From: Nemertoderma westbladi
Lineage: Eukaryota > Animalia > Xenacoelomorpha
Length of the DNA: 51,232 nt
Assembly: GCA_032718475.1 (NCBI GenBank)
Contig: JAUCBJ010007269.1
Coordinates: 1 to 51,232 of the forward strand
Direction: 5' to 3'
Shown here: positions 11,274 to 50,597 of the stretch, piece after piece
How positions within the stretch are numbered: the first letter of the stretch is position 1
How the letters are laid out: every line of letters starts with the position of its first letter
Position numbers and translations under genes: made by a program
Notes under the pieces: generated by a model
What the model saw: only the letters and a program-made list of their open reading frames with translations
Database searches by the model: none
Told to the model about the DNA's origin: nothing

Positions 11274-11343
11274 AGAAAATGGGATTTAAGTCTATAAAAT
11301 ATACAAAATCACAGTTTCTAAAATATAAAAATACTCTAAACAG

Positions 11344-14453: not shown

Positions 14454-14496
14454 ATCTGCTATCTGAGTTTATTAATATCAATATGAGTTAATATTT

Positions 14497-24107: not shown

Positions 24108-24114
24108 ACTCCTC

Positions 24115-24437
24115 AGGCATTCCTGTGGGAAACAGAGTGGAAGGGTTTACTGTGGAAGATCACCCATGGTGGTGAACAGGCATTCCTTTAGGAAACAGAG
24201 TGGAAGGGTTTACTGTGGAAGACCACCCATGGTGGTGAACAGGCATTCCTTTAGGAAACATAGTGAAAGGGTTTACTGTGGAAGATCACCCATGGTGGTG
24301 AACAGGCATTCCTTTAGGAAACAGAGTGGAAGGGTTTACTGTGGAAGATCACCCATGGTGGTGAACAGGCATTCCTTTAGGAAACAGAGTGGAAGGGTTT
24401 ACTGTGGAAGATCACCAATGGTGGTGAACAGGCATGC
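24115..24437. repeat. 63-bp tandem repeat (~5 copies) in the leader of element A
   Basis: Unit AGGCATTCCTTTAGGAAACAGAGTGGAAGGGTTTACTGTGGAAGATCACCCATGGTGGTGAAC, near-identical copies. Confidence 0.95.
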
Positions 24438-27445: not shown

Positions 27446-27570
27446 GCATACAACCAAATTATCAGTTTATATTAAATTAATCAACTAAATGAAATATTCA
27501 TATTCCTCCGAGGTAAAATGTCTGTTGAGCCTCAGTAAGAGATGACTGCTGAGTTGATACGGTCTGCCAT

Positions 27571-27730
27571 TCACATGATGTTCTTCCATCTGTTTAATTC
27601 GGTCACGTGGTCTATATTCTCCCCTTTAAGGTATTTCTCCCATATCAAGGCATAAAGTCTCTCCAACCCGTTGCAGTACTGCCCGATGTTGAACAACGGA
27701 CTGGTCGTCCTGCCCGTACCCACTTTCTCC
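27571..27730 (-). CDS. OGT: OGT terminal coding exon
   Basis: Acceptor TTTCATTTTCAG. Phase-2 join CG|G gives R-EKVGTGRTTSPLFNIGQYCNGLERLYALIWEKYLKGENIDHVTELNRWKNIM*, matching the OGT C-terminus (SPLFN...LERLY...W...DH). Confidence 0.92.
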
Positions 27731-27796: not shown

Positions 27797-28721
27797 TTAC
27801 CGTATATCCCGATGTATCTTACCGTATTTCCCGACCTTCTCACCGTATTTCCCGACCCTCTCACCGTATTTCCCGACCCTCTCACCGTATTTACCGACCT
27901 TCTCACCGTATTTACCGACCCTCTCACCGTATTTACCGACCTTCTCACCGTATTTCCCGACCTATCTCACCGTATTTACCGACCTTCTCACCGTATTTAC
28001 CGACCTTCTCACCGTATTTACCGACCTCTGACCGTATTTCCCGACCTTCTCACCGTATTTCCCGACCCTCTCACCGTATTTCCCGACCCTCTCACCGTAT
28101 TTACCGACCTTCTCACCGTATTTACCGACCCTCTCACCGTATTTACCGACCTTCTCACCGTATTTCCCGACCTATCTCACCGTATTTACCGACCTTCTCA
28201 CCGTATTTACCGACCTTCTCACCGTATTTACCGACCTCTGACCGTATTTACCGACCTCTGACCGTATTTCCCGACCTTCTCGCCGTATTTACCGACCCTC
28301 TGACCGTATTTCCCGACCTTCTCACCGTATTTCCCGACCCTCTCACCGTATTTCCCGACCCTCTCACCGTATTTCCCGACCCTCTCACCGTATTTCCCGA
28401 CCCTCTCACCGTATTTCCCGACCCTCTCACCGTATTTACCGACCTTCTCACCGTATTTCCCGACCTATCTCACCGTATTTACCGACCTTCTCACCGTATT
28501 TACCGACCTTCTCACCGTATTTACCGACCTCTGACCGTATTTACCGACCTCTGACCGTATTTCCCGACCTTCTCGCCGTATTTACCGACCCTCTGACCGT
28601 ATTTCCCGACCCTCTCACCGTATTTCCCGACCCTCTCACCGTATTTCCCGACCCTCTCACCGTATTTCCCGACCTTCTCACCGTTTTTCCCGACCCTCTC
28701 CCGTATTTACCGACCTCTCAC
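27797..28721. repeat. 20-22-bp minisatellite (>40 units, with a 210-bp higher-order duplication) in the last OGT intron
   Basis: Unit CCGTATTT(C/A)CCGACC(T/C)TCTCA. The block starting at 27821 is repeated at 28031. Confidence 0.95.
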
Positions 28722-29626
28722 TGTTGATGCAAGTATGAACTTAGCCTTTTAGATTACTTATTTTACTAATTTTAAGCTCAAAACACAATTTGTATTGATA
28801 AAGTTGTTTACGATATAATATCGACTATTTCAGTTAAGTTATGCTTTACTAAGGGTTTTAACGCCCAATCAGTGCCATTATACACATATCCTACCTATAA
28901 TAATGCCCCATTGGCTGTGTTATTCTATTACGGTTAATCTGATATATAAGTTCGGTTGGTTGAATGCTTTACTCACTCAGTGCATGCCGCCTCTGCTGTG
29001 CAGTTACATCTCTCATGCAGAGTTTTAATTGCCAGTCAGGTTTTCGATGACTGGAGATTATTACATGTCTAAGTCTGATATCTGGAGTTTAAAATTTGAA
29101 CTAAATTCATTGTTAATAATTGAATTATATTTACTCGTTGTTATATTTGATAATCTACTGATAAACTCAATTTTCTGTTATTATTTGCTTAATATATCGC
29201 CGATATTACAGAATCAAGGAGGTTTTACACGCGCCACAACAGGTGGGTTGCTGTAAAGTATCAGTGATAATCTGGACAATTGTATCAGATTTGTGTGTTG
29301 TCATATCTCTGACATACTAAATAATTAATATATGGCGATATTTCAGACCATTAATCTAAGCAAAGCTCTTATTATTAATTACATCACGATTGAGAGTTGT
29401 CACAAATTGAACACTGTGGTAATATCAATATAATTAGACCAAAGACTTGTCGCAATACGTTTCCTCTAAAGGGAAACACAGTCACCAGACTTGAGTCCTT
29501 ACCGAATTAATTAGTCAGTCATTTACTTGTTATTCTTTGTTATCACACCCTCTCGGTACTGTATCTCAGTTAAATACAATAGATAATCAAATACCGTATT
29601 GAACTTAGTGAAATATAGAGCAAATA
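28722..29626 (+). mobile_element. Probable solo LTR (~905 bp) inserted in the minisatellite, antisense to OGT
   Basis: Starts TGTT and ends AATA (not the canonical AACA); flanked by TCTCAC on both sides (28716-28721, 29627-29632). Contains CCAAT boxes, TATATAA at 28943 and TCACTCAGT Inr-like motif about 30 nt downstream. No ORF. Confidence 0.55.
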
Positions 29627-30020
29627 TCTCACTGTATTTCCCGACCTATCTCACTGTATTTCCCGACCTATCTCACCGTATTTCCCGACCTATCTCACCG
29701 TATTTCCCGACCTATCTCACCGTATTTCCCGACCTATCTCACCGTATTTCCCGACCTATCTCACCGTATTTCCCGACCTATCTCACCGTATTTCCCGACC
29801 TATCTCACCGTATTTCCCAACCTACCTCACCGTATTTCCCGACCTATCTCACCGTATTTCCCGACCTATCTCACCGTATTTCCCGACCTATCTCCTATCT
29901 CACCGTATTTCCCGACCTATCTCACCGTATTTCCCAACCTATCTTACCGTATTTCCCGACCTATCTCACCGTATTTCCCGACCTATCTCCTATCTCACCG
30001 CATTTACCGATGTATCTTAC
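29627..30020. repeat. 22-bp minisatellite (~17 units) abutting the OGT splice donor
   Basis: Unit TCTCACCGTATTTCCCGACCTA. On the gene strand it reads GGAAATACG|GTGAGA, a copy of the true junction GGAAATACG|GTAAGA. Confidence 0.95.
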
Positions 30021-30183
30021 CGTATTTCCGTTAGGTATCCGGGATCATTCCCTAATCTCACGGCTATATCTTCATACTCCTGGGATGACTTGGCAACCAG
30101 TTCGGGGCAACCAATCGTAGCTAATTGGGAGGCGGCCACTCGTGAAGCCAACGTCTCACCGGGAAAGGTAACCATAGGCGTTC
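30021..30183 (-). CDS. OGT: OGT internal exon (catalytic domain)
   Basis: Acceptor TTCTGTTGTAG, donor GTAAGA. Encodes [55 protein letters not shown]; phase 1 to phase 2. Confidence 0.95.
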
Positions 30184-30830: not shown

Positions 30831-30909
30831 CTCACAGTCAGTATTGCGAGTCAGCAGTCAGGAAACGGTTAAGTTATTTCAATTATTGGTTACCTACCGA
30901 TACAGTCGA

Positions 30910-31900
30910 AATGTGTTCAAACTTAATTGATACCAAAATTTTGATTTTGGGACCAAGGGAAGTAATGCCTCAGGCACATGGCCAGAACCTAATCTGTGGC
31001 GCATGTGACTTTTATTCTCAATTTTCGCGATAGCCAACTTTGAGTTCTCGTACTGCATTAATATTATGCTCATTAGAACCGCAAATTCCGATTTAGTGGG
31101 GGTAGACAACTTCAAAACAAACGTAGAGCGAATAGTTCTTGAGATATTGCAGAAAATGTCTGGCACAAGTCTACATTATTACCGCCTTGATGCGATATGG
31201 ACAAATCCTCAAAAAATTATATTTTGAATTATCTCAAGGAATCAAGAATATACACATCACAGAAATGATCGATGTGGTGGGTGTAGACGCCTTTAAAATA
31301 AGAGTAGAGTCATTAGTTCTTGAGTTATTTTACAAAATGTCAAGACTATGTCACCAATTGATATTTTATATTGAGTTGACCATGGAATACTAAATATATA
31401 TATATACATACATACATACAATATATATACATAAATATACATATATATTTAGTATTCCATGAGTTGACCCATTCCAGACATTTTATACAAAAACTACAGA
31501 TAACTAATCGCTACTCTTTAATTTTGAAGGTGTCTGTATACACTAAATCAATTCGTTGCAATTCGTACATTTTTAGTGTATTTGTCTAAAAATCATCGAA
31601 GTCACTATAATGTTCACTTGTGCCGGACTTAACATTTTCTGCGATATCTCAAGAACTATTCGCTCTATGCTTGTTTTGATGGTGTCTACCCCCACTAAAT
31701 CGGTCTGTGGTTCTAATGAGCATAATATTAATGCAGTACAGTAGGAGAACTAAAAGTTGTTCATCGCGAAAATTAAGAATAAAAGTCACTTGCGCCAAAG
31801 AGTAGGTTCTGGCCATGTGCCAGTGGCACTAGTTCACTTGATCCAAACATTAAAATTTTGTTATCTAACTAAGTTTGGACCCATTTGATGACATTTGATG
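30910..31900. mobile_element. Foldback-like element with ~260-bp inverted arms
   Basis: About 30913-31170 is an imperfect reverse complement of about 31616-31880 (e.g. GGCACATGGCCAGAACCTA / TAGGTTCTGGCCATGTGCC). The same family occurs at 46200-46810. Confidence 0.75.
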
Positions 31901-32186: not shown

Positions 32187-32339
32187 CCGCCCATAGTACG
32201 TCCATCCCCGTTGTGTGACCATTACATAACGGCGTATCCAAACAGATGTCGGCCAGTTGGCCGCGACGAATGTGTTCCTCTTTGGTGGCCACGGCGGAGA
32301 ATAGTATCCGACCGGGTTGTAGGCCGTGTATCTTTGTCG
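32187..32339 (-). CDS. OGT: OGT internal exon (catalytic domain)
   Basis: Acceptor TATTATTGCAG, donor GTTAGT; 153 bp, phase 1-1. Encodes [52 protein letters not shown]. Confidence 0.95.
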
Positions 32340-33887: not shown

Positions 33888-34242
33888 CAGGCCCGTATGG
33901 TGATCATAATATCTGGGGGGGCAGAAGCCAAATCTGGGGGGGCAAACCCATAACTGGGATTTGGGGAGCATACAAAAAAGTGAGAGTTAATTTAGTACAT
34001 AAAGTAAAATCAATATTGTTGAAAGGTGTGTGGGGCGAGCCACGAAGTTGGCGGAACCTAGGCGAATTGACACTGTTAAGCAGAATGTCAATAATGGCAA
34101 ATAGTTGTTGACGTAACTATTTTGACATTAAATAACTTGGTCAGATTTAAAGCTGTCGAATTGAAAATTTGTAGGCATAAATATGTCCAAAACCTGACAT
34201 TATTTAGCGACTTTTGACCCCAACAGTTCAAGTCTCCCGCTA

Positions 34243-35473
34243 TGTAAAAGCTTTTACTGAATTGTCCGGTTATTTTTCCTTATTTTTCCCGTAAAGTACT
34301 CTGTAGTTGGTTTACCAGGCATAAAAAGGCCGTGTCCTTGCTGTACTGGTGTTTTAGCGGACATAAGAGCTATTTCTTCTGTATTTGTACTTTAGAGGAC
34401 ATAATCCGTAATTCCGTGACGTAAAAGCTCGATACTCTTGAAAACAGTGTCGCTACCATGACGACGGCTAGCAGCTGATATTGCCACGTCCACCTTTCTT
34501 TGTTTCTCTGTTCTCTCGTTGTTCATGTTGACCAATCAGAGCGTTTGTGATCTCTGTGTTGGAGGTATATACAGAAACTCAGTAGTTCAGTGTTATGTTT
34601 TTGTCCAGAGCCTAAGAACCGGCTTTGGCACCTCCGTGTTTTAGTTTTTAGTCTTACACTAGTAGGTTTAATTATAAAGGGCATATATCCTTTAACGCAC
34701 CTACCTGACTCATGGAATCACTGCATACTGATGACTGATGTCTGTATACTGCAGTACTGCATACACTGCATACTGTGTAACATTGTGCATACCTTTATAT
34801 TGTTATACTGCTATTAACCGTCAGTTCTTCATAATATGGTTGATGAATAATTATATTTGGAATAACGATAAACAACCCCGAAACCCAATATTCTTGATAT
34901 ACCGAAGGTAAGAGAGAAGGGTTACAGATAAACGATTGTGACTTATGTTAAAGTGGTTTGAAGTGAATCTAATGTTATTTGATAGACCCTACATGAGTCA
35001 GTCTGTGTTCCTTTTATATGTGACTAAAATCAGTGAAGATTGGCAGATTAGTGTGCAGTATTGTGCAGCATTGTGTATGAGTGAGTCTGTTAAAGAAGCA
35101 ATTCCTAAAGAATGCGCCATATATGTGAATTATAATTAAGCCATATCGTTGTGAGTAGTTTAAGTCATAACTCTGTTTATATAGATAAAGCGCCACGTCC
35201 TAAAGGAACTGTTAATATTACCGAAGGTGAATAATATTGTCAGAGATTATATAATACTGTCAGTCGAATAATACATTAGGCTTACATAGCAATACAAATT
35301 AAACCGTCGAACCCAATCTCCCGGGAATATCCAGCGGGTGAATGGTCGCGCACGGATTGGTTTCGACTAGTGTAGTGAATCAAATACTTGTCATAGACTA
35401 AAAAGCAGATTTATTATCTAGAAGACATTCTAATTTGGCGGGTTAAACTGCCAAAGGTCTGAAAGCGCGAACA
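34243..35473 (+). repeat. 5' LTR of element B
   Basis: TGTAAAAGC...GCGCGAACA. Only two differences from the 3' LTR were seen by eye (CCACGTCCACC vs CCACGTCGACG). CCAAT at about 34532, TATATA at 34566, TCAGT at 34579 and 34587. Confidence 0.97.
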
Positions 35474-35744
35474 TTAAAGGATATTGCTTCTTTATTGCAG
35501 TAAGCAATAAAGTCGAAAGTACCGGTCGACCGGTAACCAGTAGGCCTGACTGCCTGATCATCCGGACCGGTACCTACAGCAGTATTATTCGATTTTGATA
35601 ATTATATACCGGTAGGCCTTAATAATTAATCAGGGAGGGCCCGCCCTGGTTTTTTATTGAGTTTTTACTTATTTCTGTCAAGTTTTATTTATTTGTAGGC
35701 CAGTATTGAACAGAAGGCGTGTAAACCTGATCAGATTGTACAGA

Positions 35745-36312
35745 CAATTTGTAGGCTGAGCTGTTGTCTGATTGCTGTTAAGTCCGAACGAATTGCAGTG
35801 TGTGTAGAGCACTTGTCCGATTAAGTACGGTTAGGAAGTAGGGGCAGCCACGCTGTAAGGTAAACCCCCAACTAAAGAATAAGTCGCACTACTGGGTTAG
35901 AGCGCATACTCCCTAATCATTTCGGAGTCTGCATGTCCTGTATTTTATTTAGGCTTGAGAGTAGTCTGCCATCGTTTAGTCTGTACTTTGTTTGTGTAAG
36001 TCTGTACGGGTAGCGTATAATTTTATTTAGATAATTTGTAGGCTGGATAGTTGTCTGGCTGTTATTAAGTCTGAGCGGATTGCCGCGTGTGTAGATCATC
36101 TGTCCGATTAAGTACGATTAGGCAGTAGGGGCAGCAACGCTGTAAGGTAAACCCCCAACTAAAGAATAAGTCGCACTACTGGGTTAGAGCGCATACTCCC
36201 TAATCATTTCGGAGTCTGCATATACCGTAGTTTGTTTAGGCTTGATAGTAGTCTGTCAGTGTTCGGTCTGTATTTTATTTGAGTAGTTTGTACGCGTAGC
36301 GTAATATTTATT
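35745..36312 (+). repeat. 287-bp tandem duplication in the 5' leader of element B with a nearly invariant core
   Basis: Copies start at about 35751 and 36038. The ~95-nt core GTAGGGGCAGC.ACGCTGTAAGG...CATTTCGGAGTCTGCAT is essentially identical while the flanks are diverged. Confidence 0.9.
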
Positions 36313-37632
36313 ATTCAGAGTTTATGCGATTATTCGCAACATTCATTCCCTAAGTTTGTTCCTACAGTAATTGTGTTTGTTATACATACCGTTATAGTTA
36401 AATTAACCCCGGTACTATACGGGCTGCTCGGCGTAGGTAAAGACTGGTGATTTTGTGCATCGGTCACTCCAGCAGATGCCGTGGTTCTTTTAGCTGTTCA
36501 AGTATATTTAACTACTGATTATTTGTTGTACAAGTACTCGTACCTAATTTAGGGTTTAGTGTACAGTGCTTTCCCGAAGTAATTATTGTAGCCATTATAT
36601 TTGTGTTGTAAAGTGGTTGATAGGCACATTCGATTAGCTCTATTAACTTCTAGGTAGGAACACTCCGTGATACATAACGTAGAACCTATAGCGATACGGC
36701 TATAGGTCGTCAGGCGGTGGTATTTTCCTATCTAGACAACGCAGTGTATTTGCTACTACTTATTATTTCAAATACCGTAGTACCCTGTCCGCTGTAATAA
36801 TCAGTTTTCTAACCCTTTGTTAGGCTGGTTTGTAGACTTCTTGTAAAATTACCCTAAAAATTCGTATTTTGTGTTTTTTTGTAAATTTTTGTGTTTATTT
36901 AGAGATTGTAATCTCACCCGAATTGTACGTAATTTGTAGTATTAAGTAACTTAGGTAAATTAGAATTATTTGTTTTAGTGTCTCATAAGTAACACTTCAC
37001 TGAAAGCGCACCGCTTTGTGTAGTGATTACTCCCCAGAAATAATAACATTTATTTCAAACATTGGCAAAACCCATTAAAACGGGTATATATAAATTATAA
37101 ATCAAATCTAACGATTTATAAATAGTAGGCCTACCATATAACAATTAGGTCTCAATATCAGTTGGATTACTGCTCAAATAACGGTAATAAAGTAAGTAAA
37201 GTAACAAAGTAACCCTAAAGTAACAGAAATTCAATTATTTGAAATAATTGATATACCGGTATTTACGATAGGCCTATTATCTTTATTTCTATAAATCTAG
37301 GCTGAAATTGTACCGGTACTTGTAATTAATTCTATTTCAGAATTATATATCCTACAAACTGTAAGCTGTATACCGGTATTCCGATAGGCCTATTATATAT
37401 TTATATATATTTGTGCTAAAATTATACCGGTGTTCTGTGATAAACCTGGTCTGTAATAATACTTATATAGTTATATATACTATAAGCATACCGGTATTCT
37501 AATATATTATATATATCACGCTACACTGAGTAGCAGTACCGATAATTAATTACTAGGCTATCAGTTAATACTGAGTTACTAGACTTGCTCAGACTGTAAT
37601 ACAGCAGTAGACATTCAACTGTACACACAAAC

Positions 37633-40600
37633 ATGTCTGACGCAAAGCAGAACCTGTCAGACAGTCTACTAGATACAACGGAGAGTGAAGCGACAGCAGA
37701 GAAACCGCATAAGAGGGATGCCATTGATATCTATCTGTCAGACTATCAGCGTTTTGTGGGAGATGAAGAGTTGAGGAGAAGACTAGAGGGACTTAGCCCT
37801 AATAGCGAAGGAGCCAAACTTGTGTTAGATGCGATTGATGTGGATAGGTTAGCGGCGAACCAAGCTAAATTCGATGAACAACTCCGCATCGCTAGAGAAA
37901 GGGAAGAACAAGTAAAGAAAAAACGCATAGAAGACAGAAAGAAAGCAGCAGTGGTAGCTGCAGAAGCAGAAAGAAAGGCGGCAGCGGCCAAGGCAAAAGC
38001 AGCAGAGGCAGCGGCAGAGGCAAAAGCGGCAGAGGCAGAGGCAGAGGCAGCGGCAGAGGCAAAAGTGGCAGAAGCAGAACGGAAAGCGGCTGAAGAAACC
38101 ACCCAATTAGAATTGGAAAACATTCAGGAGAATCAAGACTGCATAAATAAACAGTTAACAGCTAGTAATATGCAGATGATGAATCGATCTACTCCTAAAC
38201 GACAAGGTTATACATCATCCGAGGAAGGCGATACCACCGACACTGAAGGCGGAGTAAATCGATCCCGCTTAAGCAGACGTAAAAGAACATTCCACCGACC
38301 GAAATTGCCTGATTTGCCTCCAGCTGTTAGAAGGCAACTAAATAACAACAACTTAGAGAGTACAGAACCCACAGACCAAATAATTACAATAGAAAGACTC
38401 CCTACTATAGTAGATGAGCCTGAAATAATTAGGCCTGTTCTTGAAATCACCCCTTCGGTGATAGACATACCTGTGCTCCCTGAAACTACCTCTAAATTCC
38501 CTCTGCATAGCACTAAGCTACCTGTGCCCCGCAGAACTGCCCAGGAGACAGTTCAGGTCCTGGACCCCGAGCGAAATATTCACAATTTGTCGCCCGTTGT
38601 CCCTCGTCCGCCCGCTACGACGTTGGCGGATCCCGTTTCGGCGGTTGATTGGGTAGACGAGAGACGGCGGGGGATGGATATCCTGCTCGGGCAGATGCAG
38701 GAGACTGTCCAGCAATTCAAGGGCACAGTAAGGGAAAGTAGGCTAGAGTTGCAAGAAGTGCAACAAAGTATCGCGCTTGAACGCGATAAATTAGTAAACA
38801 CCCAAAAGGGTATACCACCACCCTCTGTAACAATGTGTCAACCCGTTAGGTCTGAAGTATCTCATGCGCAAGGTGTGGAGCCTACACGCATATATACTGC
38901 TAGCGAAGTAGAAACTCCTATAGTGAACCCTATTAAGGGTAATTATAGACCTGTTGATAATGACATTCCCTATAGACCTGATCATAATCCGAGAAATTTA
39001 TATACCGATAACTCGATATTAAATAACACGATGGCCCAAGAAAGTTTTACGCGTCAAATGGCTAGAACCGAAGCCCGGCAAGCGGTGAAGGTGGGAGAGA
39101 TAGTCAAATTCAATGGAGATGAGATGAAATGGTTACCTTTTAATGAATATTACAAAGATAACATACAGAACTCTGTACTATCTAATGGAGAAAAACTTAG
39201 ATACCTCATCGAGTGCTTGGAAGGATCTCCCAAGTTAATGGCGTTAAAGTTTATTGGACATCCAGACGGATTAAGACAAGTTTGGGACACGCTAAACATC
39301 AGGTATGGTAATAGGACTAACATAGCTAGGTATTTATATGCGAAATTAATGGCGCCCCGAAAGTTTCTTAGCAGCGGGATTATAGAGTTTTCCGATGAGA
39401 TTCAGGAGATCTGTAGACAACTAGATTGGTTAGGTAAGTCTCATGAATACCAGAATTCTATGGTTGTAGGATCCTTAGCATCTTCTTTGCCCAAGGGTGG
39501 AGTAGGTACACGCTGGGACAAGAAGGTGTTATATATGATGGAACAACAACAACGAGACCCTACCATGGCTGATCTCATGTCATTCTTGGATGGAGAAGTG
39601 AAATTGCAACTCCTAAGGCAGTCCAGAGAGAAGACATTGGAAAACAAGGTAAGTGAGAAACCCGTTTCTAGGAGAAGGGTAATACCAGTATGTTATACCG
39701 ACGACGGTGAAAGCCAAACTTCTCAAGGAGAGGACAGCGGGAAAGACACTGACAGATCTTATGTCAATAAAATGCCTAAAGATCAGGTAAGTAAATCCAA
39801 GTCTCGACCCAATGACAGAAGGGAACCGGTACAAAAAACCCCTCCTACGTCTCCTAAAGGAATTCAGGTGAGAAAGCCCGAGGAAAGAACAAGTGTGCAC
39901 CACATAGCACAGGTTAAAGTAAGTAACATCAAGCCGAAATGTGTGCTGTGCGACGGGCCCCACCGTTTAAATGCGTGTGATAAATTCCTGAGGAAATCAC
40001 TCGAGGATAGACGTGAAGTCATGTGGGATAAGCGGTTGTGTTATAATTGCCTCAGACGAGGACACCAACGGCGAACCTGTAACTCCGACGCAAGGTGTGC
40101 AAAGTGCGGCGCAAAACATCATATCTTGTTGCACACGGAATTCGAACGAAACAGCCCGAGTCAGGTAAGTGAGTCCGAACTACATGTCCAATTCAGTGAT
40201 GTGAACGACACTGATCAATCTGAGATGGAAGGATTCTATACGGACGAGTTCTCCGACCAAAACGAATCCTGTTACCTAATAAACACCACCGCAGTGTATC
40301 GAGCACTCGTGTATGAGAAAGACACAGACAGCGACCTTACCTTAACTACTTCCGATCAACAACCATCTTGGAAAGCGCCAACTTCCAATATAGGAATCCG
40401 AGAATTTCCTGTAGTCCAGTTACGGGTCCACGGACCTCAGAAGAGCTATATAGTGAACGCCCTCCTGGACTCCGGTAGCACAGGAACATTCATCGATAGG
40501 GAACTAGCCGAAGTCATCTTTGCTGGACAACCCAAGTTCCGAACCAAGCTAAACATGTCAGGGATCATGCAAGTTTGGAATTCTACTGTAGCTGCCGACT

Positions 40601-41679
40601 ATTATATAGGTGAGTTGTCCACCCCCCAGGACGAACTAGGAGAACATAGCATCAGGTCAGTGAAAATGGTGGCTATAAAGAACTTCGCTACTACTCAAGC
40701 AGACCTTTATAATTGGGACGAGGATGAGAGCATCCAACATCTTAACATACCTCGATTCCAGACTGATTATCCTGGAGTGCAAATACTCATCGGCCAAAAC
40801 GCGCATGAGGCGCTGGAGACATTAGAGAAACGACCTGCTCAACCGCAACCACTTCAGCCCTATGCGGTAAGAACTAGAGTAGGTTGGTACCTTACTGGAC
40901 CTTCCCGTAGAACGCTCAGAGAAAGACTGCTTCAAGATCGCGTCTGCCAGCGGAGTAAATGGGAAGATGATACTAGTGAGGGAGACGACCCAACTGAGGG
41001 AACACCATACTCCTCAGATAATGACGATATTAGCTCCAATTTAGATCAATGGAGATATTGTCCCAAGAAGTTTAATCCAACGGACATCGCTTCCAGAGGA
41101 GTAACTCCTCAAGAACTGACAGATACTACAGACCGGTTAGGTGAACCCGACTTCCTGAGTAAGGAGAATGAATGGCCTCCCCATCTTACTCCGACTGAGA
41201 TTAGACCAGCCAAGGGAGCGGAGAAAGTCGAACCTGAAACCCGGACGGGTGGATCGGAGTTATTTGAACCCGGGATAGATCTGTCGGTATTACATGTTGC
41301 CAGGGATGACGCCGTGGATCTGGGCCTCCCCACCGCGAGTGGATCCTTCATGAAGATCAGAGAGAGCGATTGGAGCTCTGGAACATCAGACGTCTCGCAG
41401 GGACTCTCACCTCTCCTGCAGAGAGCGACGGACCACTATAGCTCCTGGAATCGGCTTTGTGACGCCGTCATATACTTTGAGCGATGTTTCTATCGTCACT
41501 ATTCCAGGACGAAGAGGAAACCTGGAATTGTATTCAGGATGCAGCGACTCAATCACCCAGTCGGTCGTTTGTGTTTACCGGAAGGGAATGGAGGACTCTC
41601 CGGAAACTGTGGAAGGCAAGATTCTCATCCCACGACCACCTCCCTAATCCTTCAAACATCTAGGGACTCCATAACGTAG
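37633..41679 (+). CDS. Gag-protease polyprotein, 1348 aa, with in-frame deletions of RT/RNase H and integrase
   Basis: Colinear with element A from AEKP..RDAIDIY to TPYSSDNDDI, then jumps to DQWR.CP..NP.DIASRG (junction about 41031) and from YSRTK to KPGI (junction about 41514). Zinc motifs and ALLDSGS are intact; there is no YMDD and no DDE core. Confidence 0.93.
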   Translation: MSDAKQNLSDSLLDTTESEATAEKPHKRDAIDIYLSDYQRFVGDEELRRRLEGLSPNSEGAKLVLDAIDVDRLAANQAKFDEQLRIAREREEQVKKKRIEDRKKAAVVAAEAERKAAAAKAKAAEAAAEAKAAEAEAEAAAEAKVAEAERKAAEETTQLELENIQENQDCINKQLTASNMQMMNRSTPKRQGYTSSEEGDTTDTEGGVNRSRLSRRKRTFHRPKLPDLPPAVRRQLNNNNLESTEPTDQIITIERLPTIVDEPEIIRPVLEITPSVIDIPVLPETTSKFPLHSTKLPVPRRTAQETVQVLDPERNIHNLSPVVPRPPATTLADPVSAVDWVDERRRGMDILLGQMQETVQQFKGTVRESRLELQEVQQSIALERDKLVNTQKGIPPPSVTMCQPVRSEVSHAQGVEPTRIYTASEVETPIVNPIKGNYRPVDNDIPYRPDHNPRNLYTDNSILNNTMAQESFTRQMARTEARQAVKVGEIVKFNGDEMKWLPFNEYYKDNIQNSVLSNGEKLRYLIECLEGSPKLMALKFIGHPDGLRQVWDTLNIRYGNRTNIARYLYAKLMAPRKFLSSGIIEFSDEIQEICRQLDWLGKSHEYQNSMVVGSLASSLPKGGVGTRWDKKVLYMMEQQQRDPTMADLMSFLDGEVKLQLLRQSREKTLENKVSEKPVSRRRVIPVCYTDDGESQTSQGEDSGKDTDRSYVNKMPKDQVSKSKSRPNDRREPVQKTPPTSPKGIQVRKPEERTSVHHIAQVKVSNIKPKCVLCDGPHRLNACDKFLRKSLEDRREVMWDKRLCYNCLRRGHQRRTCNSDARCAKCGAKHHILLHTEFERNSPSQVSESELHVQFSDVNDTDQSEMEGFYTDEFSDQNESCYLINTTAVYRALVYEKDTDSDLTLTTSDQQPSWKAPTSNIGIREFPVVQLRVHGPQKSYIVNALLDSGSTGTFIDRELAEVIFAGQPKFRTKLNMSGIMQVWNSTVAADYYIGELSTPQDELGEHSIRSVKMVAIKNFATTQADLYNWDEDESIQHLNIPRFQTDYPGVQILIGQNAHEALETLEKRPAQPQPLQPYAVRTRVGWYLTGPSRRTLRERLLQDRVCQRSKWEDDTSEGDDPTEGTPYSSDNDDISSNLDQWRYCPKKFNPTDIASRGVTPQELTDTTDRLGEPDFLSKENEWPPHLTPTEIRPAKGAEKVEPETRTGGSELFEPGIDLSVLHVARDDAVDLGLPTASGSFMKIRESDWSSGTSDVSQGLSPLLQRATDHYSSWNRLCDAVIYFERCFYRHYSRTKRKPGIVFRMQRLNHPVGRLCLPEGNGGLSGNCGRQDSHPTTTSLILQTSRDSIT

Positions 41680-43330
41680 CAACATATGGAGTGGGTGTGT
41701 GACTCTATTATTTTATATTATATTATTATTTTTATATTTATGTATGTATTACTATGTAATTTTATTATAATCGTTTTATTTAATTTAGTAGAATATTATT
41801 TAGCGATTATTTTGTAGAATAGTGCAATATATTCGTGTTTATTACGTACGTAATTACTTATATTATATTTAGTGCGACGGCGAGAAATAATTATTTTTCT
41901 CTTTCCTTACTGCTCGTATTCTATTATAAATACGTAACTACAGTAAGATGAAATGTCCGTACTTATTAAAGTACAATAAAGCCACTACTATATTTAAGTA
42001 TTATTGGTAGGCAGAGTATTAGGAATGCAAAGTTCAGATCCTCGTGTCTCGGCTAAATCAAGCTCTGGGTAGACCTTGGAAACGACTTGCCTCTTCACAC
42101 TGACATTGCTTCGTGCGATATTGCTCTCATACCGTATATTAAATAATACATATAGTAGCGTGATGTCCCTTTAACAGTAGCGTATAACGCAAAATAAATC
42201 TGTTAAACCCTTTGACCATCTGTAATTCTAGTCGATTAAGATATCGCGGCACCCACCGATATACTTGAAAGACAAATTCTAGAATCAGTGGTTAACGTCC
42301 CCAGACAAGTTCTGGAATAAATCGGTGCCCATCTCAAATATTAATTATTTAATATTTGCAAATCTAATAAATCAAAATCTGTAAAATTCAGATCCTCCAA
42401 CAATTCTAGTCAATTAAGATATCGTAGCATTTACCGATATTCTTAAAAAAGACAATTGTCATAGAATTAAGGATCTTGTGTCCCTAGACATGTTCTAGAA
42501 TCAAAATATGTCAATTTAATTATCAAATAATAAAATTTCAGGGAATAAATTTAAATTCATGCCTTTTAATGAATTTAATAAATTGCCATTTTTACGCAAT
42601 TTATAACATTCCCAAAATTCCATTAATTAATAGATCAAGGGAGCGGAGATTTATCTTATTATGTGTATGAGTGTGCGAAAGTCTCCCAAACATAGTCAAT
42701 AGCCGATAAAATTCATAAAGTCATGTATAAACAGAACATTGACTATTAAAGAATACTATTAAATAACATCCCAGATCTGTATGCATTGGAATTGCTCTAA
42801 TTCTATCGCTAGCTTTGCATAATGTCACCATAGCAACAACCACGCTAGAATTAGAATTGAGTTAAAAGAACAATAGAAAGCTTGTCCCATTGAATAGCAT
42901 AGGGAATAAATAGTGCACTGATAGTATCCAAGGATACATAATAATATAGTGACATTCTGGAAGGCATTGACTAACGGACAAGTGACCCGAGTGTGTATAA
43001 TTTGTGACAAGTTGTGTGTGTGGTACTTGTGAGTTTATAGGCGAATGTTACTACTAAGGTGTGTTTACAGTAGCTAGTCGCAATCGTAAAAGTAACCTAA
43101 CTCTCCAAGGAAAACCTGAAGTACATCTAAGCCTTTGGGACGGACAGTCGAGTGACTTGTGCCGGTTGTCGTTGTCGTTGTGCGGCTACGTCGTTGGCGA
43201 AAGTACAGCGGCGACGACACATCGGCGCTGAGGATCTCGTACTGTCCGGGGGTTAATTGGAGTAGGCAGCGACGCTCGCTAGCCTGAATATAAACTCCTT
43301 ATAATGTGGATAAACTCATATATAGCAGAC
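41680..43330 (+). other. Conserved 3' non-coding region of element B with predicted RNA structures
   Basis: Colinear with 14454-16073 (reverse complement). About 41930-42330 is nearly identical. Duplicated hairpin modules at about 42197-42505; long stem-loop at 43141-43248 and hairpin at 43264-43285. Confidence 0.85.
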
Positions 43331-43750
43331 ATGATGGAGTTGATAGCAGATGTTCTTGGTATCGGGGAGCGATATACTCTACTTTTGCAAGCGTTTGTTG
43401 ATAGCTTAATACGCGGCGACGTTAGTCCAACTGCTGCGGAGGACGATGGTCGTTATATCGAACCGCCAATGTCCCAAGAGCAGCTCGCGCGCGAGTTGGA
43501 CTATAGAAAATTCGCTGCTCGATACGCAGCGTAATGGTACGTATGTGGTCTTCTTAACTACTGGTCATCCTATCGATTTACACAATACGGACTATGTCGA
43601 CTATATATCCTGCCCAGCGGAGTCGGAACCATAAACTGAAATTCGAATGCGAAAATTCTATTCGAAATCGACTCGAAAGAAAAGACACTAAAGAAACAAA
43701 TGGACGCGGTAACTCCAACGTATATTTGGAATTCTTGATAGAAGCATTGT
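43331..43750 (+). pseudogene. Frameshifted remnant of accessory ORF2 in element B
   Basis: MMELIADVLGIGERYTLLLQAFVDSLIRG...RYIEPPMSQEQL aligns with ORF2. A frameshift near 43530 moves RNGTYVVFLTTGHP to another frame, with further decay beyond. Confidence 0.85.
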
Positions 43751-44661
43751 AACAACAAATAAATATCACCCGCGTTTCCCCTACCAGACGTGCGTCTTTG
43801 GTATTATTACGATAAATGTCCTAGACCCAGCCAATAAACGGAAAGACATAAACATCCACGGAAACGTCGTGTTAAACACAGTTGTGTTCGTTATATTTAC
43901 TGGAGTTTCGAGCGAAACTTGTTTGACGTATCACCTATGCTCACTCGGCTCTAACGATCCTAGAGTAAACCTACGATCAGAGTCCCGGAATACTCGGTCA
44001 AACCTCCTCATTCCTTAGTTGGACCTCAGACCTGCGATCCTGGTGGTGTCGCGGATCCTCGCGGACGGTATTCACTGTTCAAAGATCTAGTGCTACCCTA
44101 ACAATTAATCGGTAACACTCCGACAGTGATTTCTAGCTAGCCGCCCATCTTACCTAGCTGGATTATGACGCAGACACCTAATATCATTATCCAACCGTAT
44201 GGTCGTCCCGTTTAACGCGATACAACCCTTCATCAAGGTGAAGGAGAGCGTTGTACGAAACGAGTTAAACGCTATTCTATAAAGATCAAAAAGGAAACCT
44301 GCGTTTGTTCAGATAAACGTAAGTTATAACAGTAAGTCCAATCGATAAACGAATTGGCCTTATCTCAATTCGATTGGGAAATCCAGAATCTCTAAGAAGT
44401 TATCGAACTTGGACGATCCTATTCTCTGCGAGAGTTTTTGGATGAACGTATCCAGCTACGAGCGGAGGAAAATCAGCTCGAGGAGAAGCATATCGAAACG
44501 GCAGATACCTCGACCACAATCCTACACCTTCTGATGCAATCATATTGCACCCTTCACCCAGGAGTTATGGCCCTCCTAGTAAAGTGGCTCCCCCCAAAGA
44601 GAAAAAGACTCTTGCTAGCCTCAAAAAACTGCGTAAACGCCGTCTGCGTAAGAAAGACTAA
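43750..44661 (+). pseudogene. Degraded and shortened remnant of accessory ORF3 in element B
   Basis: Only the 3' end is clearly alignable: NPTPSDAIILHPSPRSYGPPSKVAPPKEKKTLASLKKLRKRRLRKKD* (about 44504-44661). The upstream part has many stops and only patchy similarity. Confidence 0.7.
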
Positions 44662-44739
44662 CTGTTTAGAGTATCTTTATGTTTTAGAAACTGTGATTTT
44701 TATATTTTATAGACTGAAAATCCCATTTTCTGGGAGCGG

Positions 44740-45970
44740 TGTAAAAGCTTTTACTGAATTGTCCGGTTATTTTTCCTTATTTTTCCCGTAAAGTACTCTG
44801 TAGTTGGTTTACCAGGCATAAAAAGGCCGTGTCCTTGCTGTACTGGTGTTTTAGCGGACATAAGAGCTATTTCTTCTGTATTTGTACTTTAGAGGACATA
44901 ATCCGTAATTCCGTGACGTAAAAGCTCGATACTCTTGAAAACAGTGTCGCTACCATGACGACGGCTAGCAGCTGATATTGCCACGTCGACGTTTCTTTGT
45001 TTCTCTGTTCTCTCGTTGTTCATGTTGACCAATCAGAGCGTTTGTGATCTCTGTGTTGGAGGTATATACAGAAACTCAGTAGTTCAGTGTTATGTTTTTG
45101 TCCAGAGCCTAAGAACCGGCTTTGGCACCTCCGTGTTTTAGTTTTTAGTCTTACACTAGTAGGTTTAATTATAAAGGGCATATATCCTTTAACGCACCTA
45201 CCTGACTCATGGAATCACTGCATACTGATGACTGATGTCTGTATACTGCAGTACTGCATACACTGCATACTGTGTAACATTGTGCATACCTTTATATTGT
45301 TATACTGCTATTAACCGTCAGTTCTTCATAATATGGTTGATGAATAATTATATTTGGAATAACGATAAACAACCCCGAAACCCAATATTCTTGATATACC
45401 GAAGGTAAGAGAGAAGGGTTACAGATAAACGATTGTGACTTATGTTAAAGTGGTTTGAAGTGAATCTAATGTTATTTGATAGACCCTACATGAGTCAGTC
45501 TGTGTTCCTTTTATATGTGACTAAAATCAGTGAAGATTGGCAGATTAGTGTGCAGTATTGTGCAGCATTGTGTATGAGTGAGTCTGTTAAAGAAGCAATT
45601 CCTAAAGAATGCGCCATATATGTGAATTATAATTAAGCCATATCGTTGTGAGTAGTTTAAGTCATAACTCTGTTTATATAGATAAAGCGCCACGTCCTAA
45701 AGGAACTGTTAATATTACCGAAGGTGAATAATATTGTCAGAGATTATATAATACTGTCAGTCGAATAATACATTAGGCTTACATAGCAATACAAATTAAA
45801 CCGTCGAACCCAATCTCCCGGGAATATCCAGCGGGTGAATGGTCGCGCACGGATTGGTTTCGACTAGTGTAGTGAATCAAATACTTGTCATAGACTAAAA
45901 AGCAGATTTATTATCTAGAAGACATTCTAATTTGGCGGGTTAAACTGCCAAAGGTCTGAAAGCGCGAACA
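44740..45970 (+). repeat. 3' LTR of element B
   Basis: Direct repeat of 34243-35473, preceded by PPT GGGAGCGG and followed by TSD CGCTA. Confidence 0.97.
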
Positions 45971-46100
45971 CGCTAGATGGCTACATGTCTAAGCATTAAA
46001 TGTCCTCCCATTTCTTTGCTTTTAATCCGTTTAACCTGAAACTTGTCAGAATTGTACTTGACCATTAGCTGTGTCATTTAAACTTTTTCTGAGGTCTTAA

Positions 46101-47078
46101 CCCTTCGTTTCTCAAACATATGAATTCCTTTGAGGTCAATTTTGACCTCAGGTAAATTAGAGGGTTGGGGTGGTCCAAAAAAACTTGTTGTCGAATTTAA
46201 ACTCAGTTTGCACATCAGATGTCATAAAATGAGCCCAAACTTCGATAGATAGCAAAATTTTGATTTGGAGATGACAGGAAATATTCCCACAGGCACATGG
46301 CCAGTTCCCGTCCTTGGCGCAAGTAAGTCATATTCCCCATTTTTGTGATGATCAACTTCTATTATTCCTAATGCATTGATATTTATGCTCAATAGAACCG
46401 CAATGACAGATTTAGTTGGTGTAGACACCTTCAAAACAAGCATAGAGGTAATAGTTTTTGAGATATTGCAGATAATGTGAAGTCCGGCACAAGTAAAAAT
46501 TAGCGCCTTGATGCGATATTGACAAAAATACCTGACAAATATCTCAAACACTATTCGCTCAATGCTTGTTTTGAAGGTGTCTACAACAACTAAATCTGTC
46601 ATTGCGGTTCTAAATGAGCATAATATCAATGCAGTAGGAATACTAGAAGTTGATCATCACAAAAATGGGGAATAAGACTAACTTGTGCCAAGGGCGGGAA
46701 CTGGCCATGTGCAATGGGAATATTTCCTTTCATCCCCAAATCAAAATTTTGGTATCTATCTAAGTTTGGGCCCATTTGATGACATCTGATTTGCGAACTG
46801 AGTTGAAATTCAAAAAAAGTTTTTCGTTGATATTGAATGGTACAGGTACAAAACACGATGAGGTGAAATTTGACCTCAATGTCAATATGTGTAGGCCCCT
46901 ATAAATTGTAAAATTGAATAGACCCCCTTGCAAATTTTTACATTTTTGTTTTTCTAATTGAGAAGTACTATAAATAATAAATGTCAAAAAATTTCGAGAT
47001 AAAATATCAATGTGTGATAAAATTGTGTAAGTTTAAATCTTCGATGGGTCAAAAATGACCTCAAAGAGAGCACAAGGG
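46101..47078. mobile_element. piggyBac-like non-autonomous element containing a foldback core
   Basis: TTAA|CCCTT ... AAGGG|TTAA; subterminal inverted CTTTGAGGTCA.TTTTGACC motifs; internal inverted arms of about 270 bp (46200-46810) related to 30910-31900. Confidence 0.75.
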
Positions 47079-47650: not shown

Positions 47651-47751
47651 AACCTATAACCTACCGTGGCAGTACAGTAAACCTATAACCTACCGTGGCA
47701 GTACAGTAAACCTATAACCTACCGTGGCAGTACAGTAAACCTATAACTTAC
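47651..47751. repeat. 29-bp minisatellite, proximal part, starting at the OGT splice donor
   Basis: Gene strand: exon ...GACCG|GTAAGTTATAGGTTTACTGTACTGCCACG|GTAGGTTATAGG... Confidence 0.95.
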
Positions 47752-47967
47752 CGGTCGCCTGAATGTAAGACTCTCCGACCGATGGAAACCTAAGTAACCA
47801 CAGGAAGGAGTTAGGGACCCGTTTCAATATGTTACACCAGGACTTCATGGTCGCGGGGTCTATTTTATAGAGCTGGTTGAAGTTACAGTAAATGGTGGCG
47901 TCATCAGGTAGTCCATACATCGAGCGAGAGGTAACCACGGGCAACGGAGGAATCTCCTCGCCGGAAG
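47752..47967 (-). CDS. OGT: OGT internal exon (start of C-terminal catalytic lobe)
   Basis: Acceptor TTTCATTACAG, donor GTAAGT; 216 bp, phase 1-1. Encodes [71 protein letters not shown] with the OGT signature [12 protein letters not shown]. Upstream exons were not found in the window. Confidence 0.96.
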
Positions 47968-48280
47968 CTGTAATGAAACCACAGTAATGTAGAAACACGG
48001 CCCACGGATAAGGGAGTCAATCCAACGGAGCCAATATGTGAGTCACTCCAATAGGAATGACAGTCTATTATTTAAATAAACATTTTGCTAAATTAATTAG
48101 AACCTATCAGGTTTATCATACACATATGTTATACGGTTTGCTGCTACCATACCATAAAATACGGTAAAATTAAGTATTAATAATAATAAAATAATTAGAG
48201 CACAAGGGTAGATAGATTTTATGATCTTAAAATAATTTGTTAGTTAGTATCATAAAATAATAATAAATTAATTAATACTA

Positions 48281-49109
48281 CCGGGTGTTCCATAATGATT
48301 GCCCCCCCCCCCCCCCCCCCCCGGGCCAGCCAAAACTGTCAGAGATGTACTTTAGTGTAATATACCATTCTAAAGAGAATTGAATTCTGAGAATTCTGGG
48401 ATTCATGCAAAAATTTAGGGTCCAATACACAAACACAAGTATAAAAATTTTATAGGCTATTCTTTAAACCTATCTTACTTTTCAATATTTGTGATTTAAT
48501 CACAATTTTAAACGCGTAGGGCTACGCGTAGGTCGAAAAGATTTACCCTGTTTAAACAGTTATTACTGCCTGACTTTTGCTGTATTGCAATATATAGTAT
48601 TCAGTTACCGGTATTGGTGTTTCTTTGGTAATTTTACTGAATTAAGCCTAACGGAAGTAATTAAAATGACAAGTTCCAGTGCAATCTTCAATGACTCTGA
48701 AGAAAAACGTATGGTTGACAGGATCAGAGATGTTACTTTTAGAGGGGGTTGTGATTCTGTGGCATAATCAAACTGAACTCAAACCAAAACGGCCCTTTTA
48801 AGGGCCTACATCCTTTGCCACTATCGAGGAGCTCCCCGTGGTGCAAAGGGGAATCATAGCTGTAAAGCTGATGACTAACGCTGGATAAATTATATTTTTA
48901 GAATTGTGATTAAATCAAAAATATTGAAAAGTAGAAAATGTTTAAAGAATTGCCTATAAAATTTTTATACTTTTGTATTGGACCCTAAATTTTTGCATGC
49001 AAGCTCAGAATTAAATTATCTTTCGAATGGTATATTACACTAAAGTGCATGTCTGACAGTTTTGGCTGGTCAGGGGGGGGGGGGGGGGCAATCATTATGG
49101 AATACCCGG
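48281..49109. mobile_element. Tc1/mariner-type non-autonomous element with ~220-bp TIRs
   Basis: TA|CCGGGTGTTCCATAATGATTGCCCCC ... GGGGGCAATCATTATGGAATACCCGG|TA; long imperfect inverted arms. Confidence 0.88.
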
Positions 49110-49135
49110 TATACTGATGACGGCGTCGAGATTCA

Positions 49136-50400
49136 TTAAAAATAGTTTGGAGTGAAGCTGTGGAATGTAATTGCAGTTGTCATAATGGGTGGCTTCCGTT
49201 TCAGAGCAATAACATAAACGACAGATACATATTCTTCTGGGAACCAACAGTTATTGCAGCCGTTTACGATGAGCTGAGATAATGAGCGACGCCTGAAACC
49301 TGTAAGACCCGATAAATTTATGTCTGAGCTGGCTGAATTGTCAATGTATTCTAGAATTGGGGTGGTGTGGGCGTATTTTGAAATACCGCACCACATTTAC
49401 CAGTAAAAAGCGCGCACTTTACTACGGATGTGTTCTAACGAGGAGATATCTGCATTCCATATATCGCATCCATAGATGATTGGTGCTAGGACTATGGATT
49501 GGAATAACTTATTGGCGGTTTCCATGGATACAATGGACAGGTTTAATTTTGTGGCAATTCGAGCAATACCTTTCTTACGTAGGTGTGAGTAATGTTTTCT
49601 GGCGCCATTCTTGGTAGAGAGTACCACTCCGGTATTCGAAGTTGTCGCAAAATTCAATGTGTTGCCCATTATAGGTGAGAATATCGGATCATGTGACATG
49701 ACCACCCCTTCGGAATATCGGATCTTGTGAGATGACCAGACCACCCCTTCGGAATATCGGATCTTGCGAGATGACCACCCCTTCGGAATATCGGATCTGG
49801 TGAGATGACCAGACCACCCCTTCGGAATATCGGATCTTGCGAGATGACCACCCCTTCGGAATATCGGATCTTGTGAGATGACCAGACCACCCCTTCGGAA
49901 TATCGGATCTTGCGAGATGACCACCCCTTCGGAATATCGGATCTTGCGAGATGACCACCCCTTCGGAATATCGGATCTTGTGAGATGACCACCCCTTCGG
50001 AATATCGGTGCGAGATGACCACCCCTTCGGAATATCGGATCTTGCGAGATGACCACCCCTTCGGAATATCGGATCTTGCGAGATGACCACCCCTTCGGAA
50101 TATCGGATCTTGCGAGATGACCACCCCTTCGGAATATCGGATCTTACGAGATGACCAGATCACCCCTTCGGAATTTAATAGCTTTTGTTTTTGATAAATT
50201 TACAGTGAGTTCGTTTATCCTGCAATATTCTGCGAGTTTTACGAGCGAATTTTGTACCTCTAATGTTTTACCGGCGATTACAAGGTCGTCCGCGTACATC
50301 CAGACAAGGCATGCCGTCGTGATGATGGTTGCTGGGAAAACAACAGCGGTGAAAGTTTACCTCCCTGAACTACCCCGATCGTTTGCGCAATAGGGTCTAA
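49136..50400 (-). mobile_element. LINE reverse transcriptase fragment interrupted by a tandem repeat
   Basis: LVWMYADDLVI...LAEYCRINELTVNLSKTKAIKFRRG (50160-50310), then KLFQSIVLAPIIYGCDIW (about 49460-49515). Confidence 0.85.
49682..50175. repeat. 35/40-bp tandem repeat (~13 units) derived from LINE RT coding sequence
   Basis: Unit CTTCGGAATATCGGATCTTGCGAGATGACC(AGACC)ACCCC, corresponding to the FRRGGHLARSDI segment of the RT. Confidence 0.95.
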
Positions 50401-50597
50401 TATGTAGTTGCCGACGCATATACTGACGAAATTAATCCCCAGGATTGACCACAGTATTCCTTACTAATATTTCAGAAGTGTAAGATAAAAGTGAGTGTCA
50501 CCGTAAACCCGCCACATATACTAATATCTTTAAGGAATTTAATCCAAAATTGTAATCCCGATCCCGAAAAACGGGATCCCGGGAGTGATAATCCCGT

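Follow-up and report, generated by a model that had tools for sequence, protein, structure and literature searches.

We analyzed a 51,232-nt stretch of DNA from Nemertoderma westbladi (assembly GCA_032718475.1, contig JAUCBJ010007269.1, forward strand), hereafter the window, to which all coordinates refer. Comparison of the window with itself delimits a BEL/Pao insertion, element B, at positions 34243–45970 (11,728 nt, plus strand). Its two long terminal repeats (LTRs; 34243–35473 and 44740–45970) are direct repeats of 1231 nt each with TG..CA ends that differ at two sites 3 nt apart, an LTR-LTR divergence of 2/1231 nt (0.16%, 0.0016). A target-site duplication, CGCTA, adjoins the 5′ LTR at 34238–34242 and the 3′ LTR at 45971–45975, and a polypurine tract (44732–44739) lies directly 5′ of the 3′ LTR. 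B is a recently inserted, young BEL/Pao element that lacks reverse transcriptase (RT), RNase H (RH), and integrase (IN); the near-identical LTRs and intact duplication reported in the original prediction, which was made from the sequence alone, are both present.

Between the LTRs, a 2.2-kb leader (35474–37632), which contains internal duplications of 287 nt and 117 nt, is followed by an uninterrupted frame of 1348 amino acids (aa; 37633–41679, plus strand), open as predicted, in which Gag-protease (Gag-PR) is fused in frame with two remnants of pol. The frame includes a capsid region (DUF1759 above the Pfam cut-off, aa 493–619, 39109–39489), three intact Cys/His knuckles (aa 770–834, 39940–40134), and an aspartic protease (aa 925–1092, 40405–40908) with DSGS at aa 946. 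Besides DUF1759, Pfam returned weak protease and knuckle matches, and none of Peptidase_A17, Integrase_H2C2, or DUF5641 was found in B. All three, together with DUF1759, are found in a second BEL/Pao element in the window, element A (10066–24146, minus strand, thus inverted relative to B), whose domains follow the order PR-RT-RH-IN. The gag-pol of A is a single frame of 2596 aa without frameshift (16074–23864, minus strand), with YMDD and integrase motifs present, and A carries the same polypurine tract as B. The first ∼550 nt of the B LTR (U3-like) are unrelated to the A LTR, whereas the remainder is 71% identical; within the window, the B leader has no detectable likeness to the upstream region of A or to its N-terminal 184 codons.

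Alignment of B with A confirms the two in-frame deletions that had been proposed. The first removes A residues 1329–1915 (587 codons, RT-RNase H, A ∼19880–18120) and the second A residues 2078–2542 (465 codons, integrase, A ∼17633–16239), both with the frame unchanged. At junction 1 (41031–41041), about 10 nt align to neither end of the gap. The segment that follows (41044–41513) is a remnant of the RNase H tail and the RH/IN linker, drifting in sequence and still open. At junction 2 (41513–41517), the zinc finger and core of the integrase are missing along with most of its C-terminal domain, and a remnant of the integrase C-terminal tail (41517–41679) runs to the native stop. The change from WLGGPDFL to RLGEPDFL, cited earlier as a sign of drift in the pol tail, is present in this alignment. 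The N-terminus of Gag is indeed shorter than in A, but by 184 residues counted from the first ATG of A; the loss of ∼280 residues first suggested is approached (∼278) only when counting from the upstream stop at 24146.

Pairwise ratios of nonsynonymous to synonymous substitution (dN/dS) between B and A were estimated by a counting method with Jukes-Cantor correction and 300 bootstraps. The ratio is 0.19 (0.15–0.22) over 1115 codons of gag-PR and 0.36 (0.24–0.54) over 211 codons of the pol remnants, with dS of ∼0.6 in both. This comparison had been named beforehand, and it bears out the claim that Gag-PR is the more conserved part. The capsid (0.14) and protease (0.12) have the lower ratios, with a dN of 0.06 summed over both branches; B and A are 80% identical over Gag-PR and 88–89% identical in the capsid and protease (89% in the latter). 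Changes were assigned to branches from an alignment of A to 60 outgroup BEL polyproteins (34–44% identical), the best among 120 listed. In columns with at least 80% conservation among these outgroups, B departs at 6/26 positions of the pol remnants and A at 0/26, while in gag-PR the departures are 2/48 for B and 1/48 for A. The excess of B departures in the remnants over gag-PR is significant by Fisher's test at this threshold (p = 0.019), marginal at 70% (p = 0.056), and stronger at 90% (p = 0.005), where B departs at 5/22 remnant columns. A loss of 6/26 corresponds to ∼0.1 neutral substitutions per site (interval 0.04–0.28), more than 20 times the LTR-LTR divergence; the decay therefore did not occur at the B locus and is older than the insertion. 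B appears to have moved while already without working RT and IN. On the same branch the capsid and protease have changed little and the knuckles and DSGS are intact, so Gag-PR was still under selection.

The pol remnants have nevertheless stayed open despite their drift. The chance of meeting no stop in them at a divergence of 0.10 is 0.11; the chance of no frameshift in 633 nt, at the rate seen in the accessory ORF2 described below, is 0.05 (range 0.00002–0.70, from only two events); and the chance that both junctions fall in frame is 1 in 9. Taken together, these low odds point to selection for reaching the native stop, and not for the residues of the remnants.

Downstream of the stop, blocks of near identity to A alternate with decay. 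A non-coding block (41790–42450, plus strand) is 90–99% identical to A per 100 nt, and its core (41966–42127), which starts 287 nt past the stop, has one mismatch to A in 162 nt, compared with only 72% identity at fourfold sites. Neither this region (41860–42200, z = −0.90) nor the 3′ segment at 44500–44760 (z = −0.53) is predicted to fold better than shuffled sequences, and Rfam gave five sub-threshold matches, none inside B. The accessory open reading frame (ORF) 2 of A (13824–14453, minus strand, 209 aa, non-env, no Pfam match) persists in B as a broken remnant (43331–43747, plus strand) with two frameshifting deletions, a missing 3′ end, and a dN/dS of 0.31. It is followed by 752 nt (43748–44499) that are unrelated to A or to the rest of the window and replace ∼2.5 kb of A. 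Searches for the origin of this segment gave a best protein score of 37 and a DNA score of 33 against A, both within the range of shuffles, and its six frames gave 0 Pfam matches; its last 150 nt resemble a decayed helical coding stretch, possibly a captured sequence. The element then resumes likeness to A with the last 53 codons of ORF3 (44500–44661), the 3′ spacer, and the polypurine tract (44500–44739 in all, plus strand, 91% identical to A). In the ORF3 tail, dS is only 0.17 (p = 0.0005 against a dS of 0.6). In A, ORF3 encodes 591 aa (11344–13119, minus strand) of a knuckle-rich, non-env protein with three Cys/His clusters and a basic C-terminus, for which nothing was found but weak CCHC-type look-alikes below 0.9. 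The description of the accessory ORFs as heavily decayed thus fits ORF3, of which only the last 53 codons are left, and overstates the case for ORF2, which is still 79% identical to A over 428 nt.

The near-identical blocks would be either retained cis signals or traces of recent template switching or exchange with A-type RNA, and either origin would tie B to the enzymes of this family. In Rous sarcoma virus, the available text describes a position-dependent RNA stability element (RSE) after the stop (PMC4764554). By analogy, an RSE-like element past the stop of B could explain the open remnants and the conserved block together, which we offer as a lead only.

The position at which a primer should bind, directly after the 5′ LTR (35474–35494, plus strand), is also unusual. 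The TGG expected of a tRNA-type primer site is absent from the 15 nt that follow the 5′ LTR. Instead, the first 11 nt (35474–35484) are the exact complement of LTR positions 443–453, a candidate self-primer word located at 34685–34695 (plus strand; second copy at 45182–45192), and the following 12 nt (35483–35494) match, by pairing, LTR positions 849–860. In dinucleotide shuffles, an 11-nt complement arose in 5/3000 cases at offset 0 and in 15/3000 at offsets 0–5, although the match was noticed before testing and these values are uncorrected; among internal 11-mers of B, only 5/9255 have any LTR complement. A fold computed from LTR word 443–453 to the leader is predicted to pair this word with the 11 nt after the 5′ LTR with a probability of 0.59–0.99. 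Against self-priming, TATAAA begins only 12 nt upstream of the 11-nt word. If TATAAA acts as a TATA box, transcription would start ∼15 nt past that word. The published criterion for a self-primer, as given in the available text, is at least 10 nt, starting 0–5 nt after the 5′ LTR, that are complementary to the LTR (PMC6317226), and B has 11 nt at offset 0, a length that also agrees with the one in Tf1. For the Belpaoviridae, the profile of the International Committee on Taxonomy of Viruses (ICTV) gives priming by tRNA through an 18-nt site that pairs with the 3′ end of tRNA-Arg or tRNA-Gly (PMC8742986).

We surveyed the same position in distant BEL loci from metagenome contigs. From 71 loci, 30 had a long direct repeat and 11 of these a 5′ LTR end that could be fixed (L009 and L057 are uncertain, and L035 and L039 were dropped because their 5′ LTR end could not be fixed). 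Only 1/11 has a TGG site within 5 nt of the 5′ LTR. LTR complements of 10–11 nt occur in 2/11 (reached in 1/300 and 0/300 shuffles), and complements of 6–7 nt occur right after a pyrimidine-rich ..YAG in 6/11, each not significant on its own and three of them related. In five of these six the complement lies upstream of a polyA word; none was found in L026. Non-tRNA priming across part of BEL/Pao is a possible reading of these sequences. A tree of 30 RT-RH rows places A beside loci without a TGG site, with a support of 26% that sustains no clade. We also observed that loci without TGG (L009, L038, L050, L022, L055, L002, L026, and L054) carry LTR complements of the word after the LTR, and that the ..YAG is initiator- or acceptor-like. 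Separately, long extra ORFs lie downstream of the pol match in L047 (3172–7127, 1105 aa), L048 (3860–7257, 824 aa), L060 (8299–11664, 790 aa), and L036 (4526–6879, 513 aa).

Searches for relatives of B returned only distant ones. A search with the B protein gave three distant matches among 7987 candidates and no close relative; B Gag-PR had 12,766 matches in 1.84 billion representatives, none above 37% identity among the best 150; and scans of metagenomes (24 stretches) and viral contigs (4 stretches) yielded none related to B. The A polyprotein had 504 matches, nearly all BEL-type among the 120 matches listed, and its N-terminal extension had no Pfam or Atlas match. Among 151 distant Gag matches, five join Gag(-PR) to pol remnants without RT, although three of the RT-less matches are annotation gene models and may hide introns. 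The BEL polyproteins observed with in-frame loss of RT-RNase H are P0182, P0273, P0275, P0278, and P0197. Compared with the RT-bearing P0276, the proteins P0182, P0273, and P0275 (from assembled contigs, in clusters of 3 and 5 members) have a common in-frame junction that joins the protease linker to the RH/IN linker, while the RT-RH junction of P0278 is a different one. Like B, these three fuse Gag-PR in frame to the RH/IN linker, with a junction common to several proteins; unlike B, they belong to a distant lineage (matched by B at ∼28%) whose closest named relatives are from a barnacle, and in P0273 the integrase is complete. In-frame loss of RT thus seems to be a recurrent event among BEL elements.

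B lies antisense within an intron of a host gene. Three minus-strand exons, found among 12 frames scanned, match Glyco_transf_41 in profile order and have splice signals: 47752–47967 (profile 344–416) upstream of B, 32187–32339 (413–468) downstream of B, and 30021–30183 (466–522), all from an OGT-like gene. A probable last coding exon (27571–27730, minus strand) has no Pfam match; its splice acceptor and frame fit, and we take it to resemble the OGT C-terminus. B occupies 11.7 of the 15.4 kb between the exons at 47752–47967 and 32187–32339. Around the exons, intronic minisatellites with 21-, 22-, and 29-nt units (27799–28721, 29625–30029, and 47651–47753) start beside splice donors; those with 21/22-nt units are similar in sequence to the exon-intron border at 30021. 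A 2.4-kb satellite with a 61-nt unit and an internal palindrome (25048–27415) lies between the host gene stop and probable polyA words. Elsewhere in the window there are elements with long terminal inverted repeats that resemble miniature inverted-repeat transposable elements (30909–31900, 46179–46824, 48279–49111, and 884–1383; the first two are one family), and decayed fragments resembling long interspersed elements (∼2500–9900 and 49000–50500), with endonuclease- and RT-like words in several frames of the translations.

The A copy breaks off at its 5′ end shortly beyond the host gene, ∼3.4 kb past the probable stop. It has a single LTR (10066–11265, minus strand), and no A 5′ LTR or leader was found elsewhere within the window; short complements at 27417–27488, considered as its 5′ region, fall in the 3′ region of the host gene. 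Upstream of its first ATG, the A frame continues through 94 open codons, and its start adjoins a 63-nt tandem repeat and a G run of 32 nt. Either a genuine truncation or a join made in assembly could account for the missing 5′ end. Although its genes are intact, this copy has no 5′ LTR and is therefore not shown to be the helper; what its presence demonstrates is an autonomous family that still exists or did so until recently.

From these comparisons we consider it probable that B is a member of a long-lived non-autonomous lineage whose own Gag-PR packages its own RNA and which borrows its enzymes from an autonomous relative. In agreement with the original prediction, non-autonomy predates the insertion and Gag-PR has been under purifying selection afterwards, so a lineage is a better reading than a one-off decayed copy. 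The two deletions would be old and carried through many rounds of copying. RNA from the 5′ LTR of B would be translated into Gag-PR that favours that same RNA; such cis preference is the simplest reason why selection would preserve the capsid gene of an element incapable of copying itself, and it has been reported for vertebrate BEL/Pao in a modelling paper. A co-expressed full-length polyprotein of the same family, of the A type or of an unseen closer type, would enter the particle and supply RT, RNase H, and IN, which would read the common polypurine tract, the LTR ends, and the conserved internal block. The pol remnants would drift in their residues while staying free of stops, probably since translation must end at the native stop beside the conserved block, whether through an RNA-stability arrangement like the Rous sarcoma RSE or through a cis role of translation like that of IAP 1Δ1 (see below). 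Priming of the minus strand by B's own RNA, and not by a tRNA, may complete this cycle, a step that we put forward only tentatively. For the proposal of A-type helpers, only the shared cis blocks speak, in that they point to one replication machinery; the A copy itself lacks a 5′ LTR, and B has a U3 and leader unlike those of A.

Several points weigh against this reading. Only one copy of B is available, and the word lineage rests on rates, not on sister copies. Relative-rate tests for each region are not significant (RH tail, 10 vs. 4, p = 0.18; IN tail, 3 vs. 0), the outgroups are distant (34–44%), and B also departs at one strongly conserved column of the protease. Constraint on linker regions may be weaker by nature, and this would inflate the dN/dS of the tail. 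The conserved blocks, which have no unusual folding, could reflect recent recombination instead of constraint, and with a wholly different U3 and leader in B and no 5′ LTR in A, A is not identified as the helper.

Some of these same points would be expected if B had arisen by recent deletion within an autonomous B-type subfamily, as yet unseen. The deletions would then date from just before or just after the insertion, and the conservation of Gag-PR would reflect only an autonomous past. The single known copy, the non-significant tests, and the U3, leader, and Gag start that differ from A as those of a separate subfamily would, all agree with such an origin, as does the absence of stops from the tail, which a recent deletion would leave intact. 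We regard it as unlikely, however: a loss at 5 of the 22 remnant columns conserved in at least 90% of outgroups would hardly be tolerable with a working RT and IN, ORF2 is frameshifted and most of ORF3 replaced in an element whose LTRs differ by only 2 nt, and junction 1 is unalignable over ∼10 nt.

B might also be a partner rather than a parasite, providing surplus Gag-PR in trans as one half of a two-component system like that of wheat RLG_Quinta and RLG_Cereba, a plant precedent. The single 2596-aa frame of A, without frameshift, implies one Gag per Pol, where an excess of Gag over Pol is described as the rule in studied elements; the capsid and protease are as close to those of A (88–89%) as co-assembly would require; and a second BEL lineage likewise has Gag-PR frames without RT. 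However, a multicopy element is only weakly selected in trans unless the success of the partner feeds back, and A's own Gag is intact, equally conserved, and could be made in surplus by splicing or by turnover of Pol. Cis preference accounts for the same data in fewer steps, and we hold a partnership of this kind to be very unlikely.

That B serves chiefly as a defective-interfering element, or as a restriction factor favoured by the host, with its Gag-PR poisoning A-type particles, is highly improbable, and no observation here supports the interference raised in the original prediction. Without enzymes but with cis blocks in common, B RNA would compete for RT and IN, and the fused pol remnants and shorter N-terminus could disturb assembly, but the intact capsid, knuckles, and protease site suit a working particle, and a young, intronic, antisense insertion is not an old fixed host gene. 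We likewise rejected a domesticated single-copy gag gene: the LTRs are 99.8% identical and flanked by a duplication, unlike an old locus with decayed LTRs. Finally, it is scarcely credible that the gaps are introns of a spliced RNA that was copied back, or that B is an assembly chimera. The frame is kept across both gaps, and a GT and an AG occur close to the borders of gap 2. However, any GT is more than 12 nt away from the 5′ border of gap 1, the GT-AG pairs available at gap 2 would excise 1390 or 1393 nt and so miss the in-frame gap, and a chimera of reads would not give the ∼18% difference from A throughout with its codon-position pattern, the matching LTRs, and the duplication.

Beyond the preferred reading of B as a cis-acting satellite, a broader synthesis can be framed, which we find rather doubtful as a whole. 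BEL/Pao elements would have split repeatedly into an enzyme donor and a capsid-protease satellite; B would be a partner genome that primes itself, encodes Gag-PR alone, assembles together with full-length elements, and substitutes for the mechanism of Gag surplus that a single-frame gag-pol lacks; and it would be part of a large self-RNA-primed group of BEL/Pao, against the family definition. BEL/Pao replication is poorly understood and, according to the ICTV profile (PMC8742986), assumed to be tRNA-primed. A natural pair in which one member retains Gag-PR alone lets selection separate parts needed in cis (capsid, knuckles, protease, a frame open to the native stop, the 162-nt block, and the 3′ end) from those that can be borrowed. 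It also makes two questions directly testable with kinds of data already in use: do LTR elements package in cis, and are there BEL/Pao elements that prime themselves?

In comparison with known systems, B resembles the Belpaoviridae (genus Semotivirus; PMC8742986), described as metazoan, in its LTR-gag-pol layout, polypurine tract, and BEL-type Pfam domains. A has the PR-RT-RH-IN order of this family, and B its type of capsid/nucleocapsid Gag (DUF1759 and three Cys/His knuckles). B differs in having no RT, RH, or IN and no tRNA-type primer site, and both A and B differ in exceeding 10 kb and in having two non-env 3′ ORFs. Against the family ranges (LTR 0.2–1.2 kb, genome 4.2–10 kb; PMC8742986), the 1231-nt LTR of B is at the limit and its 11,728 nt lie above. 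The absence of TGG and the 11-nt LTR word complementary to the first 11 nt past the 5′ LTR recall Tf1 and Sushi, although the available text describes self-priming for Ty3/gypsy (Tf1/Sushi/Tcn1) and copia (TAR) elements and not for BEL/Pao (PMC7175516, PMC6317226). We found no Gag-PR-only or self-priming BEL/Pao element in the literature searched, whose coverage leaves out Repbase and the majority of subscription journals; PMC554778 and PMC3118150 are silent on primer sites.

Non-autonomy with Gag retained has been described in plants and in vertebrate endogenous retroviruses (ERVs); it is here extended to BEL/Pao, where its recurrence is suggested. The statement in the original prediction that Gag-only lineages are known mainly from plants proved too narrow, given mouse IAP 1Δ1, zebrafish BHIKHARI (Bik-1 and Bik-2), and chicken ENS-1. 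The latter two systems are, like B, animal, recently active elements that keep Gag, lack pol, and have an inferred partner; unlike B, they are ERV-related, with a host function shown and no protease reported in the available text (PMC12067270). IAP 1Δ1, described in the available text as a betaretrovirus-like ERV whose internal in-frame deletion removes part of gag and pol and leaves a Gag-Pol fusion reported to act in cis (PMC6466679), is likewise non-autonomous, recently mobile, and reduced to one frame. The trait of a single open fused frame after internal deletion is present in B, which differs in its whole capsid, knuckles, and protease, its two deletions, its dS of ∼0.6 from A, and its own U3 and leader. 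By analogy, a cis need for translation of the B fusion would be indirectly suggested by the frame that stays open despite drift. The plant TR-GAG or GAG-PROT-only families and wheat RLG_Quinta, the partner of RLG_Cereba, as described in the available text (bioRxiv 10.64898/2026.03.01.708851), also keep GAG and protease, lack RT, RH, and INT, need an autonomous partner, and have young LTRs with a duplication. TR-GAGs are defined there as plant copia or gypsy derivatives of <4 kb, whereas B is an 11.7-kb animal BEL/Pao element with in-frame pol remnants and decayed 3′ accessory genes. Thus, B works like TR-GAG and IAP 1Δ1 and is a member of neither; having kept only PR and remnants of Pol, it is classed as a BEL/Pao derivative by descent.

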